Shown here: one piece after another, positions 24,001 to 33,000 of the stretch | Layout of the letters: every line of letters begins with the position of its first letter | Numbering within the stretch: position 1 is the stretch's first letter | Assembly (NCBI GenBank): GCA_963717465.1 | Contig: OY970340.1 | Location: forward strand, 1,344,001-1,408,000 | Source of the DNA: Candidatus Bathyarchaeota archaeon | GTDB lineage: Archaea; Thermoproteota; Bathyarchaeia; Bathyarchaeales; Bathycorpusculaceae | Reading direction: 5' to 3' | Length of the DNA: 64,000 bases | Made by a program: the position numbers

Positions 24001-27000
24001 CTGGTTCCGCTGCGAACTGATCAACCATCGCAGCTCCAAGCAAGTTAACACCATATTCTTTTGCCATTTTATAGTTTTGAATTACAATCTGCGTAGTTTT
24101 TTCCATAATCGCTGGCCATAAATCAGGGTTTCCGTAAGCTCTAATTTTTTTTCTGCGTTCTTCATCCTTTGATTCTACATAGTCTTTGTAAAGGCGAAAA
24201 TCTCTGGGTAAATGCTGGTCTCCCCTAAGTAACATTGCCGTGTCCCAAGGGCCATCATTAACGTAGAAGAAGAAACTGTTTGGAAAGAGTTGCGGACCTT
24301 TCTTGTACATCTCTAAATATGCCTTGAAATACCCACTTGGCGTCGAAGGTGGAACTATTTTTTGGGCGTCTTCAATGCTACCTATTGGATGTTTTGAAGC
24401 ATAAGGAACTCTGTCATCAGTTATCGTGAATTCCACTCCCATCTCGGCAGTCCCGGTTAGTGTTAGCCCTAGCCACCATGGCACCATTGCTACGTCAAAT
24501 GGGTACTTTTCATTTATTTTACCAAATAGCTCTAATTGTAAATCTGTGCTTTTAGCTAAACTTGTGTAATTGTATTTTGAATCTACAAGGTATGGCTCGA
24601 GATTTCCAGCCGCTATTGAAACAGGCACTTGGTCGGGTATTGTCATTTGTGAAAGCATGAAACGTTCAGCACCAGTTAAAGTTCCTATCCTAAGTTTTCG
24701 CTTAATCATTGCTTTCAATATTGTAACCAAGAGGTTTGCCATACTCGTCTTCTCCTTATGGAGGATTCTATGAGAGGAAATTTAACTCTTTGTTTGTATG
24801 TGATGCATACTAATAATTCGCTTATCGTTCATTCGCTAAGTCTGACGGTGCTGGCAGGGGACAAAGTGAACTGCTTCTATCCCAAATTTTATTAAAATAG
24901 TCTTCTAAAGTCTCAGCTATTAATCTACTATTAGTCCAAAGTCCCTTAATTTCTTCGTCTCTAACAATAGTGCGCATATTCGAAAGACCGATGAGAGCTT
25001 CTTCCTTATCCCGAATAATAAAATCTGAAGGCACATTATCAGAAGTTGTATAACGTATTTCTAATCTCAAATTGTAACTCTTAGACAGCTTAAGAATTCT
25101 TGCAGTTTTTGACGTATCCAAAGATAAATTTACAATCATTCTAATTCTTATGTTGTGCTTTCTTGATGCGCATCTAATAAAGAGTTCAATATCCCTCAAA
25201 AGCTCTGTTTCATCTTGTTTCTCGCAATATAGGCATAAAAATTCCGTGTTGCTTTCATTAAGCATTCTTTGAGATCTTGAGAAAACGCGGTCATATCCCT
25301 GCATTACCGCTGCCCTCTCTTCTGAGATAAAAGATTCAGAGCTAAACGATAGCATTTCTGATAAAACATTCAGGTCAGTTATTATTTTTCTGAGTTCATT
25401 CTTTTTGATGTCTATACATAAAGTCTTTAATTTTTTTGGAGAAACTGCAAGAAATTTCTGCGGTCTCTCTAGAGTAGCTTCCACCAAGCCGTTTTTTTGC
25501 AAGTTTTTCAAGTAACCATATGTAAGGTCTCTATTAAATCTCAAATTTCTTGCTATGTCCAGTGCTTTTAGGGGTCCAGTTCTGCAAAGAAATGTATAAA
25601 TGTTCCATTCTCGCTGCGTAAGCCCTAATGAAGTGAACACTCTCTGCTCAGCTTCATTATCACTCGTTGCATCTTTCCTCAAATATGTAGCCAACTTATT
25701 ACCCCCCCTCAATGTAATCAAGCTTTTTTCAAAATTATTTATAGCTTTTCGTTTTTTGCATATAGGATTAAAACACGCGCTTGTTCATTAAAAAGGTTAA
25801 AACACACTGCTAAATTTAGTCACGGTCAACCGCCATGCTGTTTGACTATCTAATAAGCACTGTAAACTTTGAATTCCACAACAAATAATGCACGCTTAAG
25901 ATAGAATTTAACCGATGCCTTTTATTCGAGACCCTGCTCCCAAGGTTCTTTATAATTCTCAGCAGTTTTTTCCATTATTTTAGGCACCATTTTTTGCTCT
26001 ATCTTATCTATGTCCTCGGGAGATTTTGGCTCCTCAGATTCCGGAGTTTCTGATGGTTTTGCAGCCATTAAGTAATCGATTCTTAAGATTAATTCAGCAG
26101 TTTCAAAAGCAGAATTTATCGCTTGCAGTTTAACTCGAATAGGATCACAAACGCCCTGTCTCTCCATGTCACCTGCTTCTTTTCGTGCTGAATTTATCCC
26201 AATCTTTTTCTCGCCTTTTGCATGACTTAATTTTAGCATTGGTAGCGTATCTAGCAGATTCATACCAGCGTTTTTACATAGAACAGCGCAGATGTCTTCA
26301 AATGCTTGAGCAAAAGCGTTAACGGCTAACTGTTCTTTTGTTTTGATTTGGTTGGCGTATGCTTTTAGTTGAGAGGCGATTTCAATTTCAAAAGCGCCGC
26401 CCCCGTAAACGATGCGTGGGTCTTTGTAAAATTCTCTTATAGCGGACAAGCCATCATTTATCCCGCGATATGCTTCATCAACAAATAGTTTTGAGCCGCC
26501 GCGCAAGATTATTGTTGAAGCCAAAGAATCCTCTTTTCCTGTAAAGAACGCGTAGGTTTTTTCGTACAGTTTTTGGGTTAATATTAGTTTGCTTGATCCA
26601 AAGAACTTGGGAGTTAATTCATCTATGTTATCAGTAAGAATGCCCCCAGTGACTTTTTGTATTTTCGTTAAGTCAGGCATGAGAACCCTTTTGAATGCTG
26701 AAATGCCTTTGTTTGAGAAGTATTCCAAAGCTGCATCGTCGATATTCCAATTTGAAATAATTACGTTAGCTCCTGAAGAAGCAATTTTTAGGGCCATTTC
26801 TTGAGCTATTTCTTTCTTCTTTTCTGAAAAACCATCGATATGCTCTTTCTTAGTTACGTCTATTTTTATGAGATTTTCGTATTTTGATAGTTGACCCATG
26901 GAAAAGGCTTCTATTGGTCTTGTGATAAAGGTGATCTTTGCATTTTCAACTCGTTCTGGCATTCCAAAGCGGCTCATCGGAAACTCTATAACCCAACCAT

Positions 27001-30000: not shown

Positions 30001-33000
30001 GTCCTCGAACCCGATTCTGAAAGCTTTGCCCCAGTCTTTCAACGATTCTGTGTTCTTTTTGAGTCTGCTGATAAGTTCATTAACCGAATCCTCGGCTATT
30101 TTTTCTTTATCTTCCGACATTCTTTCCACCTTAATACTTTCTCTAAAAAACATCTATTTAAAACTGAACTAATATAATTATTTACAAACAAGAGAATAAA
30201 TGTTGATTTTACATTAACTTTATAGATAGTTTCGACTAACATGAGTAATGGTGAAAAGGGTTATGTCTCTTGACGAAAACACGAAAAAGGAAATTGAAGC
30301 TGCCTTCACTGAACAAAACGATATAAAATGTGCAGAACTAACGAAAAAAGCTCTTGATGCTGGTGCTGATCCAGCTGTAATTCTGGAAACTGAAATAGGA
30401 ATCGTAAAGAAACTTTGTGAAAACAGTTGGTGGACAGGCGGTGTTGAGAAGAGTGCTAAAGAAAGCGAAAAGACTCTTCTACTCTCTGACTTAATAATGA
30501 TTGGAGACTGTTTAAAGACTAGTGCCGAAATTCTTAAGCCTTCTCTAATGGGCAAAATTAGTAAAGCCGGTGGTGGACGAATAGTTACTGGAACGATTGA
30601 GGGCGATATTCACGATATAGGCAAAAACATAGTTGCCGATATCTGGACTTCGGCTGGATATCAAGTTGAAGACTTAGGTTTTGATGTGCCACCTAAAAAC
30701 TTTATAAATTCTGTAAAAGCGGGCAGATGTGACATTGTTGCCATAAGCTGCTCAATGGGTATGGCTAAGACAGGGATTTCAAAGGTCGTTACTGAACTTA
30801 AAAAAATGGGGCTACGTGAAAAAGTAAAGATCATTGATGGTGGGCAAGCATGTTATACCACAGATGTTGAAAGACTTGGAGTTGATGTGATGGGATTAGA
30901 TCAAATAGATGGTTTAAACAAAGCAAATGAATTAATGAGAATACTTAAAGAAGAAAGAGCTAAAAAAGAGGTGAAAGCATGAGTTTAAGAATACCTCAAG
31001 AAATAAACGGTGAATACTTTAGAACTCTTAACAATATTCCATTCACTTATCAGTGGACTGAAACTGAAGAATTCATCATTTCTAAATGCCGCGCAAGAAT
31101 CATGGAAAAGAAGAGTGAAGAGCAATTAACACCAAGACAACGAGTTTCAAGAACTCTTTACAGCAATGGACCACTTGACCGCTTATCCACTGTTATTTCC
31201 GGAGTTCACAATGCAATGCCACGAGTTTTTGATGCCTTCGGTGAAACCCCCTCAGTATTCGGTCAAAAAGACATGATTAATTATCCAAACTTGGATTTCC
31301 TTGGGACAGTGATGTGGACTGCAAAGTTCTGGATGAATGACCAAGTTGCTCCTTCAAATTTCAGTTATGCAGAAGAAGTATTTAGCAGTAAGTACAGGTT
31401 GATTGAATATGGTCCGCCATTATCCATTGAGCCTTTACTGAGAAATAAAGAAGACGCATTATTCTTCCTAGACAACATGCCTGACCCAGCACTACAAGGA
31501 ACTTACCCAGAATATTTGTGGCTGCTTAAACAGGGGCTCAAATTCTTCCCAGAATTCTACCTGTCAGGATCCGTTTGTCCCGGCACCATATCTGGCGCCA
31601 GTTTCCTTAGAGGAATAAAGAATCTCTTGGTTGACATGCGTAAAAATCCTGAAATGGCTGAACTAATACTCAAATGCTCCTCTCAATTCCTTAAGAAAAA
31701 GATGGATAGGATGATACCGATACTGGACCAAGACCTTGATGAGAATGGAAAAGGTAACTTCCTATGGTGGTGCGATGCTGCAAGCTTCTTTAATCTTGAA
31801 GAATTCAAGCGAACTTTGCCTCTCACTTATGGCTCTGATGTTCCTTATGCTGAAAAGAAAGGATTCAGATGCGGATTTGCTCCAGAAGCTCCTCTGGCCA
31901 CAATGGACGTGGTAAGTCAAGTCGCTTCTGAGCACGGTGGATGCATTGGTATCCTTGGGCATAATGAGTCTCCACCAATCGAAGAATGGTACAAGATGAC
32001 CCGGAAATATCGATAACGTAACAGCACTAGTAATTGCCGACGTTAAAACTATACTAGATGGTCCTAATGAAGCGATCAGTGAAATGTGGAAGCGACAACG
32101 AAAGATATTTCGCGGCATATCCAACACAGGGATACAGAACTCGACACTCGCTAGGCTTTCGATCCTACTACTCCACTACAAAACATGGAGTATACAGCCA
32201 AAGCATACCTTGAAACATTCAAACTTCCATTTGAAGCTTAAACCTACCTTTCTTTTTTCTTTTTTCGGTACCTGTCTTTTCAAAGGTTTTTTAAGAACTT
32301 ATTTTTTAGTGAAAGTCATATTATCTTTGGGATTAATCGTTTCGTTCGTTTCATGTACTGTGCATAGCTGTTGCCTAATTCTTTGACAAGGACTTTTTCT
32401 TCCACGTGTATCCTGTAACCATAGACTAATCCGAAAATTGCTATATCAATAAATAATGCTGCCCAAGACTGTACTGCCAATCCCATGCCAACGAAGAAAA
32501 CTAGAACTCCAGTGTACGAGGGATGTCTTACCAGACGGTAAGGCCCAGTTTCCACAATTTTATGTTCTTCCTGAACGCCTAGGATTTGAGAGAAATAGCG
32601 GCCAAGTACAGCAATAGCATATTGTCTAATCATAATTCCAACAAGCATAACTGCAATGCCTATGTAATACGACCAGTCAGGCAACAAGCCAAAACCAGCC
32701 TTAGCAAAGCCTACTGTAAAGGCTATGACGGCAACCCAAGAAATAATCACCATCGTGTTTGAGCCCACATTTCTCCGTTTCACTCTTGCGCCACCCCGCC
32801 TTAATGCTGGAATAATTACACCCCCAATTTGTTCACAAACAAAGAAAGCAACAATTACGATTATGAAACCGACGGCTGCAGAGTTCGAAGTCAAAACTGT
32901 TGAAACCATGCTTATCGAACGCGTATTAATTATAGGTATAACTTATGTGTATCTGAAAATTCATAATACTTAGTTACATGACACGTCAAACCAAGCTAAA

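Follow-up and report, generated by a model that had tools for sequence, protein, structure and literature searches.

A repeated corrinoid methyltransferase module with a linked H-protein-like putative lipoyl carrier in a Bathyarchaeota genome

Why should a gene resembling that of the glycine-cleavage H-protein lie among genes for corrinoid-dependent methyl transfer? The question is raised by positions 25922-32232 of the window analyzed here (a stretch of 64,000 nucleotides from a Candidatus Bathyarchaeota archaeon), which hold genes for a thermosome, a TrmB regulator, a GcvH-like protein, an SCP2 protein, a corrinoid protein and a methyltransferase (MT) of URO-D/MtaA fold. An earlier note had read them as one of six copies of a module for corrinoid-dependent methyl transfer working with a lipoylated carrier. 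Gene calls in the window are open reading frames (ORFs) combined with a Pfam scan; the genome, a single contig of 3,053,889 bases (3.05 Mb), was scanned by tblastn. The locus and its adjoining genes are the following.

22917..24742, (-): second MT pair adjoining the locus, made up of a corrinoid protein (208 aa) and a URO-D-family protein (398 aa)
24822..25721, (-): second TrmB regulator; Pfam TrmB, 43 bits
25922..27868, (-): divergent thermosome (group II chaperonin) paralogue; Pfam Cpn60_TCP1, 429 bits
28131..29021, (+): TrmB-family regulator; Pfam TrmB, 53 bits, and a weak Regulator_TrmB match
29086..29592, (+): H-protein-like putative lipoyl carrier; Pfam GCV_H, 84 bits; ESRKYTGP at the lysine
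29761..30153, (-): SCP2-fold small protein; Pfam SCP2, 22.0 bits (cut-off, 21.3)
30248..30982, (+): cognate corrinoid protein; Pfam B12-binding, 68 bits
30979..32016, (+): URO-D/MtaA-fold MT, first 345 codons to a premature stop; no Pfam match
32017..32232, (+): rest of the MT gene (3' end), frame-shifted

The corrinoid protein, with the DxHxxG B12 motif (GDIHDIGKN), is translationally coupled to the MT, the two genes sharing 4 bases. The TrmB regulator at 28131..29021 is 54% identical (tblastn) to the adjoining one. In the adjoining MT pair, tblastn at E 1e-5 revealed no paralogue of the URO-D-family protein (23546-24742; Pfam URO-D, 62 bits) within the genome, and its partner was assigned from tblastn alone, translated positions 22917-23543 matching the genome's other corrinoid-protein genes. 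A second module lies in the same window, at 10452-17598.

10452..12119, (+): thermosome gene at the module's edge; NCBIfam thermosome beta, 673 bits; canonical GDGTTS motif
13654..14019, (+): SCP2-like gene, from alignment A10, an AF2 model and a fold search
14128..14592, (-): H-protein-like gene, 43 bases downstream of the MT
14635..15897, (-): MT, split into ORFs of 241 aa and 118 aa
15900..16622, (-): corrinoid protein; NCBIfam pyl_corrinoid, 131 bits, under the cut-off
16684..17598, (+): TrmB regulator, divergently transcribed

Besides 25922-32232, the module set recurs in five further loci. In agreement with the earlier note, tblastn placed eight MT-family genes in six loci (contig positions 85204-90601, 1123008-1128045, 1354452-1361000, 1369922-1376232, 1507595-1515411 and 2819197-2826673). 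Recomputed coordinates also bear out the distances claimed, each MT having a corrinoid gene at a distance of 0-2.55 kb and seven of the eight having a GcvH-like gene no farther than 2.4 kb away. Corrinoid-protein genes occur at 22 places in the genome (tblastn) and the estimated chance that one randomly placed MT falls this near to one of them is ∼3.7%; proximity in all eight cases is therefore far beyond chance. Six of the nine places with GcvH-like genes (tblastn) fall within the loci. An SCP2-like gene is present in all six, the L001 copy being recognized by alignment and profile, a TrmB gene in five, and three of the genome's eight thermosome genes lie there, all as had been claimed. Corrinoid protein, MT and GcvH genes follow each other on one strand, separated by 43-82 bases, an order that recurs here and in other metagenome-assembled genomes (MAGs). 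In two modules, two MT genes flank one corrinoid gene, and module 2 holds genes for an MttB-like protein, a corrinoid protein and an H-protein on one strand. Module 6 encloses RACo and LplA genes; modules 1-5 have no RACo or MtrH gene of their own, and H-protein-bearing modules mostly lack MtrH, while the genome as a whole encodes MtrH and RACo-type activases. ComA was not found. The genome also carries a complete canonical MCR operon, which was not found in the 88 genomes sampled from its genus.

The MT is an enzyme of ∼422 aa with a (beta-alpha)8 fold of the URO-D/MtaA type (family model, pLDDT 90.7) and an extra N-terminal stretch of ∼50 residues. Its description as Pfam-less holds for the window copy but is only partly right for the family, since P0054, at 32.4 bits, and P0011, at 25.3 bits, exceed the 23.9 cut-off for URO-D. 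At its 3' end the window copy carries three 1-base insertions, jointly frame-restoring, relative to an intact 424-aa paralogue (L003:2595-3869) with which it is 85% identical (tblastn); read through these insertions, its dN/dS is 0.14. The split MT at 14635..15897 has an intact orthologue in L013 (ORF 1789-3054), 85% identical over the aligned C-terminal part. For the three members that had been listed as frameshifted or split, either purifying selection is seen or intact orthologues exist; split genes being numerous in this genome, gene decay and assembly error are equally likely causes.

The best structural match of the MT model is MtaA (4ay7; Z 29.4, rmsd 3.0 over 326 residues, 13% sequence identity), closely followed by URO-D entries with Z scores of ∼28. 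No family-wide conserved His exists. Where the genome's own MtaA-like protein has its HxC...C zinc motif, the aligned MT positions are not conserved; an MtaA-type thiol enzyme was rejected on these grounds. The invariant residues C199, C265-D266 and E150 sit at the ends of successive strands, where Cys with Asp/Glu could form a thiol-activating metal site.

The H-protein-like genes keep the lipoyl lysine, as had been claimed: it is invariant across the aligned copies. The copy at 14128-14592 scores under both NCBIfam GcvH cut-offs (90.0 versus 117; 70.8 versus 115.85), and the one at 29086..29592 has a pI of 5.96. Matches to PF01571 (GCV_T) and PF02347 (GDC-P) number zero in the genome; with neither a T nor a P protein found, these proteins do not serve glycine cleavage, as the earlier note had argued. 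Lipoylation of the lysine is predicted from its conservation and from LplA genes beside two modules, although this adjacency could be due to chance: for one of 5 LplA genes to lie near one of 6 modules we estimate ∼15%. LplA-like genes were found at five places, not at the six reported before. An LplA-LipS1-LipS2-OsmC-GcvH cluster lies at 738-742 kb of the contig. Module 5 is flanked by HdrA-MvhD/HdrC/HdrB, HdrC/HdrB lie ∼3.7 kb from module 6, and Hdr genes also adjoin an MtaA/MtrH cluster. Adjacencies of LplA and Hdr to modules are few and could likewise reflect chance.

H-proteins and lipoyl domains carry aminomethyl groups, as in glycine cleavage, and acyl groups. The arm could by analogy carry a substrate thioester, a formaldehyde-level C1 unit or persulfide sulfur that ends as methanethiol, and the strict pattern of one H-protein per module suits a carrier. 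However, no acyl-activating enzyme, T-protein-like enzyme or sulfur transferase is encoded within the modules, and we consider this option very unlikely. LbpA relatives have been proposed as sulfur/redox carriers in the sHdr system, in the available text of PMC6067878, but the two conserved Cys of LbpA are missing here, with no Cys in six of six ESRKYTGP-type copies.

For the MT family, the earlier note had a single weak match among 200 other genomes of the order. The family is not confined to this genome: 4 of 400 other genomes from the order give strong matches, and 3 more give weaker ones to the N-terminal half. The identical 4 of 400 carry the ESRKYTGP-type H-protein, which is found in none of the 396 genomes lacking the MT clade, most of which have an ordinary GcvH. 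As the positive genomes all belong to one family (three genera), these counts are not independent. Nine of 11 metagenome loci with the H-protein subfamily hold further module genes, and other Bathyarchaeia MAGs keep the module together. Sister modules in G355, G262 and G233 contain MT-like, corrinoid protein, TrmB, SCP2, RACo and MtrH genes and no H-protein gene, which suggests an ordinary MT1 to which the H-protein has been added. The proposal of corrinoid methyl transfer with a lipoylated carrier stands in part: the linkage of H-protein to corrinoid protein and MT is strong, but a part for the carrier in methyl transfer itself is hypothetical. New here are the conservation of the module as a unit in relatives, the co-occurrence of MT and H-protein, and the H-protein-less sister modules with a classical O-demethylase layout.

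Across 10 modules, mean identity is 42% for MT, 52% for the corrinoid protein and 62% for the H-protein, so that the MT diverges fastest and the H-protein slowest; the fast divergence fits substrate diversification in the MT. H-protein distances correlate with those of the corrinoid protein (Mantel r 0.76) and of the MT (r 0.62), and over deep pairs at 0.44 and 0.13, respectively. Such correlated divergence could be obtained from block duplication alone, the H-protein being a general lipoyl antioxidant or lipoyl-relay protein copied along and unrelated to methyl transfer. OsmC indeed adjoins H-protein genes, including one of the ESRKYTGP subfamily in L011, and every module carrier comes from a single archaeal family; lipoyl-dependent peroxidases of the OsmC/Ohr type have been described, as cited in the available text of a preprint (bioRxiv 10.64898/2026.10.01.755906). 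Yet the paralogues are old (MTs 35-50% identical to each other, dS about 1 for the closest pair), and the H-protein is nonetheless kept in every module and best conserved. Together with the tight one-strand spacing and the subfamily's absence from MT-free genomes, this makes an H-protein unrelated to methyl transfer quite unlikely. The H-protein is tied to corrinoid protein and MT by operon order, co-occurrence and joint divergence.

Regarding the other partners, the AF2 model of the SCP2 paralogue at 13654-14019 (pLDDT 92) has an SCP2 fold, with AF1534 SCP2, human SCP2, an alkylsulfatase C-domain and UbiJ as top Foldseek matches, pointing to a putative carrier of hydrophobic ligands. The thermosome at 25922..27868 is 31-35% identical to three other aligned thermosome paralogues, has GDGVKT where canonical copies have GDGTT[ST], and carries a clade-specific insertion and a C-terminal MVPK...PWE(K/Q)GL tail. 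Orthologues of this type lie near modules in L011 (49.6% identity) and L046/L048 (56%); in the genus sample (90 genomes) it occurs in G251 alone, an MT-positive genome. The paralogue is thus tied to the module and often, though not always, part of it.

We propose that each locus is a separately regulated, TrmB-controlled methyl-uptake module of the MT1 demethylase type, closest to Mto/Mtv, with a lipoyl H-protein as redox helper. That the H-protein is obligately linked to a corrinoid MT module is highly probable and an MT1 role for the MT is somewhat favored; the reading as a whole falls a little short of even confidence, and the redox role is put forward tentatively. The MT would demethylate a substrate that is probably hydrophobic and that SCP2 may hold or deliver, passing the methyl group to Co(I); methoxylated aromatics are the leading candidates. 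From CH3-Co(III) the methyl group would leave via MtrH-type enzymes encoded elsewhere to H4MPT or, in this MCR-bearing genome, alternatively via MtaA-type enzymes to a thiol cofactor, with Co(II) re-reduced by RACo enzymes. The lipoylated H-protein would be a module-specific dithiol/disulfide arm, re-reduced by Hdr-like or Lpd-like enzymes, that maintains the corrinoid protein or the MT, which has two invariant cysteines, in the reduced, active state or returns it there, for example by supplying electrons to ATP-dependent reactivation. The potential of a lipoyl dithiol is about -0.29 V, far above Co(II)/Co(I), and it could therefore act on cobalt only through an ATP-driven activase. Against such a helper, modules 1-5 lack a RACo of their own, and a generic helper does not obviously need one paralogue per module.

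The MT1 assignment, in turn, has against it that a thiol methyltransferase, MtaA, tops the structural matches, that the invariant Cys and Asp/Glu could bind a thiol-activating metal, and that two MTs around one corrinoid gene would also suit an MT1 + MT2 pair. In an alternative reading the dihydrolipoyl arm is itself methyl acceptor or donor, a protein-bound stand-in for coenzyme M, with the MT acting like MtaA or the bifunctional MtsA. The structural match to MtaA, the candidate metal site, an H-protein encoded directly downstream of the MT once per module, the presence of MtrH mostly where the H-protein is lacking, the missing ComA, and Hdr genes near two modules and the MtaA/MtrH cluster all agree with it. 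It is nevertheless unlikely: the MtaA residues are not kept, URO-D entries nearly equal MtaA in structural score, H-protein and MT co-diverge weakly over deep pairs, and the four other module-bearing genomes show no MCR. To our knowledge, no enzyme uses an S-methyl-dihydrolipoyl protein, and none was seen here; moreover, a thioether detour ahead of H4MPT would cost energy, as established for Mtr.

The preferred reading, an MT1-type demethylase with a redox helper, places the module closest to the Mto/Mtv-type O-demethylases of Methermicoccus shengliensis and acetogens, for which the available text of PMC8630106 describes MtoB as MtvB-related MT1s of 47-48 kDa alongside MtoC, the MtrH-like MtoA and the activase MtoD. 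As there, an MT of about 47-48 kDa, related to the MtaA/CmuA family, lies beside a small cognate corrinoid protein that can serve two MT paralogues, with a regulator in the cluster (PMC8630106). MtrH and RACo-type activases are encoded in this genome and also within the sister modules, which combine SCP2 and TrmB with the classical four parts of an O-demethylase (MT, corrinoid protein, RACo activase, MtrH). In contrast to Mto/Mtv, the H-protein-like putative lipoyl carrier, SCP2 and the thermosome paralogue belong to the unit and modules 1-5 lack their own MtrH or activase; the likeness drawn here to MtoB/MtvB is one of layout and size. MtaA/MtbA (MT2) and MtsA resemble the MT in best fold match and in its place beside a B12-binding protein, but differ in the conserved His, the zinc motif, the N-terminal extension and the low identity noted above. 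With GcvH the carrier shares the Pfam GCV_H domain and the lysine, but it scores under the NCBIfam cut-offs, the genome lacks P and T proteins, the lysine is flanked by RKYTGP instead of the VKA-SD-like sequence of the genome's own canonical copies, and the ESRKYTGP type has an extra C-terminal tail and is encoded in corrinoid MT modules. LbpA is likewise an H-protein homologue outside glycine cleavage, and LplA/LipS1/LipS2-type genes in the genome and Hdr-like genes near some modules extend the likeness; the two conserved Cys that mark LbpA in the available preprint text (bioRxiv 10.64898/2026.10.01.755906) are missing here, the modules have no sHdr operon or sulfur transferases, and the host is an anaerobic archaeon with a methyl-transfer context. 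A similar setting, likewise archaeal and non-methanogenic, is offered by neighborhoods of MttB-like, MtbC-like and gcvH genes in Atabeyarchaeia and Freyarchaeia (compare module 2), listed in the available text of PMC11291895 with no role proposed there; their MT is of the MttB type, not of URO-D fold. Here, a B12 methyl-transfer enzyme set is paired with a putative lipoic-acid carrier normally of glycine breakdown, a pairing kept in a few relatives.

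The span 25922..32232 of the window holds six genes, according to ORF calls and Pfam searches:

Within 25922..32232, minus strand: thermosome paralogue, 648 aa
Within 25922..32232: TrmB regulator, recognized by Pfam
Within 25922..32232: GCV_H-domain protein (H-protein), 168 aa, reading ESRKYTGP around the lipoylation lysine
Within 25922..32232, minus strand: SCP2-like protein, 130 aa
Within 25922..32232: B12-binding (corrinoid) protein, 244 aa, with a DxHxxG motif
Within 25922..32232, overlapping the B12-binding gene by 4 bases: 5' part of a methyltransferase (MT) gene, a 345-aa ORF with no Pfam match

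A second pair lies directly upstream together with a second TrmB gene; its corrinoid protein has 208 aa and its URO-D-family protein 398 aa. A second full module is located inside the window at 10452-17598.

The repeat was checked on the 3,053,889-base contig by means of tblastn, an ORF map and Pfam scans. The earlier note had counted eight MT-family genes in six loci, a number that tblastn and the ORF map reproduced. Its account of the neighbours held as well: each MT gene lies 0-2.55 kb from one of 22 corrinoid genes, seven of the eight have an H-protein-like gene within 2.4 kb, and SCP2-like genes occur in all six loci, TrmB genes in five and thermosome genes in three. Module 6 (L004), the most divergent of the six, comprises in order LplA (L004:1463-2152), thermosome, RACo, a split MT-like gene, corrinoid protein, 128-aa ORF, H-protein and SCP2. 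This ORF (L004:8217-8603, minus strand), placed between corrinoid protein and H-protein, has a weak partial match to an archaeal protein-lysine N-methyltransferase model (55 bits, cut-off 200). Pfam found neither an MtrH-like MT2 nor a RACo-type activase in the window locus or in modules 1-5, while RACo is present in module 6; the genome as a whole has MtrH-like and MtaA-like genes, four of each, as well as three RACo genes and two RACo-like ones.

Nine MttB-superfamily paralogues (e.g. G000:C1:745477-747045 and 1121408-1122979) share 66-73% identity and have a corrinoid-protein gene alongside in at least seven cases; one is situated directly upstream of the module 2 H-protein gene and another just before module 6. 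AmmeMemoRadiSam-type radical SAM genes with a zinc-ribbon tail (TIGR04337 at about 250 bits, above cut-off) flank module 1 on both sides (L001:758-1834, minus strand, and L001:8085-9152, plus strand), and one follows the thermosome gene in a related MAG (L011:13492-14541). Genes for DUF6951 recur beside modules (L011:874-1236 and L046:14945-15295), beside a lipoate-assembly cluster (L012:18916-19242) and right after McrA (L039:7193-7597).

The MT family is very small. Among 1.84 billion cluster representatives, 48 match at E <= 1e-3, of which 16 also reach E <= 1e-30, and a 5.8-billion-sequence collection held 25 proteins, the sole organism name attached being Candidatus Bathyarchaeia. Relatives further removed, about 400 aa long and named "uroporphyrinogen decarboxylase family", also come from Bathyarchaeia. 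The description of the family as Pfam-less applies to the window copy and to L003:7169-8437 but not to two further members, P0054 and P0011, which score 32.4 and 25.3 bits, respectively, and pass the URO-D gathering threshold (PF01208; 23.9 bits) over the N-terminal half only. No match to NCBIfam was found, the MT profile retrieved noise alone from the PDB by sequence (E 0.13 or worse), and the 398-aa URO-D protein had no match there either. The AF2 model (pLDDT 90.7) predicts a URO-D-type (beta-alpha)8 barrel and places the protein in the URO-D/MtaA superfamily fold. Its best Foldseek match is 4ay7, MtaA of Methanosarcina mazei (E 3.7e-08; VIA Z 29.4, rmsd 3.0, 326 residues), with URO-D entries close behind (Z ~28) and MetE at about 19. 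The structural match covers residues 50-417, residues 1-50 being an extension outside the core.

In MT2 enzymes of the MtaA/MtbA type, an HxC...C zinc site activates the thiol. The genome's own MtaA-like protein (L006:5065-6093) has this motif as LHICG...EPGCG, and the positions concerned align to non-conserved residues in the MT family, where no His is invariant or nearly so among 25 members. Because hhalign aligned only the N-terminal half of the two proteins (77% probability), statements on the C-terminal motif rely on the missing conserved His and on a MAFFT alignment in which identity is about 17%. The MT thus has the MtaA fold but, judged by the motif that defines MtaA-type thiol enzymes, is not one of them. 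The invariant residues C199, C265-D266 and E150, located at the ends of successive strands, might form an alternative site.

These results bear on the suggestion that the dihydrolipoyl thiol of the H-protein is itself the methyl acceptor. Such a role would explain both the presence of one H-protein per module and the lack of MtrH in the modules; however, the zinc motif is missing from the MT and no downstream enzyme is known, and we consider it unlikely. It is reasonably probable that the MT clade consists of substrate-specific MT1 enzymes, a reading adopted because sister modules without H-protein have the Mto/Mtv O-demethylase component set. The MT length of 422-453 aa fits the ~47-48 kDa of Mto/Mtv MT1 proteins.

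The 345-aa ORF is the 5' part of a gene of about 420 codons, for which the intact paralogue L003:2595-3869 (85% identity) served as reference. Compared with this paralogue, the gene has single-base insertions at three places in a stretch of about 150 bases; the stop at 32016 arises from the first, and all three together restore the frame. When the gene is read through, dN/dS is 0.14 in the 3' part vs 0.09 in the 5' part, at a dS of ~1.07; since the 3' part keeps a low dN/dS, the breaks appear to be recent or assembly errors. Many genes of this genome are split by single frameshifts, including those for MtrH, RACo, McrB, LplA, a LipS1-like protein and a GcvH (e.g. L006:11317-12297, L006:13045-14987 and L039:2046-3387). 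As each of the three inserted bases lies in a TCG context, this abundance of split genes points to systematic errors of assembly more than to gene decay on a wide scale, and it fits the marker completeness of 88% in a single contig. A search for sequencing runs gave one DNA run, containing 0.06 of the words, and no RNA run.

The context of the module outside this genome, which the earlier note could not examine, recurs in related MAGs and metagenome contigs. Corrinoid protein and MT are found together in six loci of three Bathyarchaeia MAG records, most of which (L011-L015) also contain H-protein, SCP2 and TrmB genes; L011 has a thermosome gene in addition, and L012 has LplA genes. In the latter, the genes after the MT are, in order, LplA, two radical-SAM genes, an uncharacterized ORF, a canonical-like GcvH, a further radical-SAM gene and a second LplA, a lipoate-assembly cluster whose counterpart in the studied genome lies elsewhere, at 1.688-1.695 Mb. 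Searches with the H-protein subfamily yielded 11 metagenome contigs, nine of them with further module genes, the two exceptions being a 1,057-base contig and one with the H-protein gene between transposases. Full-length MT matches were obtained in four of 400 other genomes of the order (G251, G335, G346 and G328). Exactly these four have H-protein matches of at least 218 bits, all other sampled order genomes remaining at or below 138 bits with ordinary GcvH. The H-protein looks like an addition confined to this MT clade. The module-type thermosome occurs in one of 90 other genomes of the genus, namely the MT-positive G251. The SCP2 subfamily is a little wider (11 of 400 order genomes), including G355, G262 and G233, where MT-like, corrinoid-protein, TrmB, SCP2, RACo and MtrH genes cluster without an H-protein gene. 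These co-occurrence counts are not independent, as all positive genomes belong to one family with three genera.

The SCP2-like protein has a borderline Pfam score (22.0 vs a cut-off of 21.3), and the AF2 model of the paralogue at 13654-14019 (pLDDT 92) has the SCP2 fold (Foldseek matches 3bn8, 8af2, 1ikt and 6h6o, probability 1.00). The module thermosome contains a Cpn60_TCP1 domain (429 bits). Thermosomes, the group II chaperonins, carry the nucleotide motif GDGTT[ST]; the canonical paralogues read accordingly, whereas the module clade reads GDGVKT.

The H-protein has a GCV_H domain (84 bits), and all 14 sequences aligned keep the lysine. A copy of the subfamily did not reach the NCBIfam GcvH cut-offs (90.0 vs 117 for NF002270; 70.8 vs 115.85 for TIGR00527). 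The reported lack of GcvT and GcvP was borne out, PF01571 and PF02347 having no match in the single-contig genome of 88% marker completeness; a single E2 (2-oxoacid_dh) gene is located at 2.44 Mb. LbpA, the lipoate-binding protein of the sHdr system, is described as having two cysteines (bioRxiv 10.64898/2026.10.01.755906), and all six module H-protein copies contain none. Adjacency of LplA was considered as strong support for lipoylation and rejected, as it concerns two modules only and may be due to chance. Outside the modules, G000:C1:738280-742427 (L006:1-3445) combines LplA, LipS1, LipS2, OsmC and a canonical-like GcvH, a set suggestive of an independent lipoyl-dependent peroxidase system, although the genome has no glycine cleavage system.

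Co-folding of MT and H-protein, run without controls, gave ipSAE values of 0.14, 0.49 and 0.20, the median being below the mark. The co-fold gave no verdict. The proposed corrinoid methyl transfer with a lipoylated carrier is partly supported: the gene linkage is strong and recurs in relatives, and the chemistry is putative. Mantel tests on the distance matrices of 10 non-redundant modules (10,000 permutations) gave r = 0.87 for MT and corrinoid protein (p = 1e-4; r = 0.62 over 43 deep pairs), r = 0.76 for corrinoid protein and H-protein (p = 2e-4; 43 deep pairs, 0.44) and r = 0.62 for MT and H-protein (p = 1e-3; 43 deep pairs, 0.13). The H-protein tracks the corrinoid protein better than it does the MT. 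Mean identities over the 10 modules are 42% for the MT, 52% for the corrinoid protein and 62% for the H-protein, and the MT is the diversifying part.

We tentatively favour a role for the H-protein as a dithiol/disulfide redox helper because it co-diverges with the corrinoid protein, because OsmC adjoins H-protein genes, because RACo and LplA sit in module 6, and because Hdr genes are found beside module 5 and near module 6. Far less probable is a bolder reading, in which the lipoyl H-protein would be a protein-bound thiol/disulfide cofactor, functionally equivalent to CoM, to the CoM-CoB heterodisulfide or to both, taking methyl groups or electrons at the methyl-corrinoid step and being recycled by neighbouring HdrABC-type disulfide reductases; if true, Hdr complexes, widespread in non-methanogenic archaea, would gain a physiological disulfide substrate. 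The locus is best described as a putative Mto-like corrinoid demethylase module to which a lipoyl-type H-protein and a thermosome of its own have been added. The MT paralogues, each controlled by a separate TrmB, would have different substrates, SCP2 would act as a hydrophobic-ligand helper, and methyl exit and reactivation would be supplied in trans by MtrH-like, MtaA-like and RACo genes elsewhere in the genome.

Outside the window, a complete methyl-coenzyme M reductase operon is located at G000:C1:1660046-1664846 (L039:2046-6846), composed of McrB (split), McrD, McrG and McrA. Its neighbours, up to L039:17746, include McrC, several methanogenesis-marker DUFs, a BcrAD/BadFG ATPase, OsmC and DUF6951. 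McrA is of the canonical type, with 72-76% identity to Methanosuratincola and Archaeoglobi entries and a best match of 85%. MCR_alpha was found in none of 88 sampled genomes of the same genus and in one of 400 other order genomes, as a divergent copy in another family. The archaeon may thus live as a methyl-reducing methanogen whose set of methyltransferases is unusually large. Dependence of the module on MCR was rejected, none of the four other module-bearing genomes matching MCR_alpha. At 7431-9254 (minus strand), the window encodes a 607-aa fusion of a NifH-like ATPase and a NifD/NifE-like domain, whose best NCBIfam models, nifH at 378 bits and CfbC, an F430 enzyme, at 363 bits, fall just below their cut-offs; an enzyme of the CfbC/CfbD type would agree with the presence of the MCR operon. 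A nitrogenase-type oxidoreductase gene is also found near the module in L046. L030 (G000:C1:1645070-1657358), separated by about 5 kb from the locus of the MCR region, joins Hdr and thiol-type methyltransferases in one neighbourhood: HdrC-HdrB-HdrA/MvhD is divergent from a run of MtaA-like, MtaA-like, MtrH, MtaA-like, corrinoid protein and RACo genes, followed by TrmB. On one strand, L031 (G000:C1:2297086-2307894) carries ETF alpha/beta, OsmC, a RACo-like gene, HdrB, HdrC, HdrB and a GltD-like oxidoreductase; this RACo-like protein has a 4Fe-4S instead of a 2Fe-2S domain, a type also found beside the module in L011.

Participation of the H-protein would give lipoate a function not previously seen in anaerobic C1 metabolism and could bear on the in vivo electron donor for corrinoid reactivation, as well as on the disulfide reduced by Hdr complexes in archaea without CoM/CoB. 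Eight paralogous MTs with their own regulators (TrmB in five of six loci) would imply a broad methyl-substrate range. Relatives of the module come from Bathyarchaeia MAGs and environmental metagenome contigs, and Bathyarchaeia have been linked to lignin-derived methoxy compounds (PMC10989822, PMC11697101). As the parts are all small soluble proteins and intact copies exist, such as the L003 pair of corrinoid protein (6422-7147) and MT (7169-8437), the system is testable.

In the literature, we found no description of an H-protein or lipoyl carrier, SCP2 or dedicated chaperonin within a corrinoid methyltransferase system. The only mention that the searches gave is a passing listing of MttB-like, MtbC-like and gcvH genes near MtrH in Asgard archaea, with no comment there on function (PMC11291895). 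GcvH has been proposed as a possible disulfide for Hdr in Culexarchaeia (PMC9723716). The published MT1 of Bathyarchaeia is MtgB, of about 300 aa (PMC10989822); judged by its description, the MT family, with 422 aa and a URO-D fold, is unlikely to be the same. A 310-aa ORF without Pfam match that adjoins MtrH (L006:10026-10958) might be an MtgB relative.

The module shares with the glycine cleavage system the H-protein domain and the putative lipoyl lysine, while the P- and T-proteins were not found. Corrinoid methyltransferase systems are described as having four components, namely MT1, corrinoid protein, MT2 and activase (PMC10989822). The Mto system has MtoB as MT1 (47-48 kDa, MtvB-related), MtoC as corrinoid protein, MtoA as an MT2 that resembles MtrH and acts on H4MPT, and MtoD as activase (PMC8630106). 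As in Mto/Mtv, a cognate B12-binding corrinoid protein is encoded next to the MT (Pfam, DxHxxG, 4-base overlap). In contrast to Mto/Mtv, where an MtrH-like MT2 and an activase are part of the cluster, these genes are found here elsewhere in the genome and inside the sister modules without H-protein.
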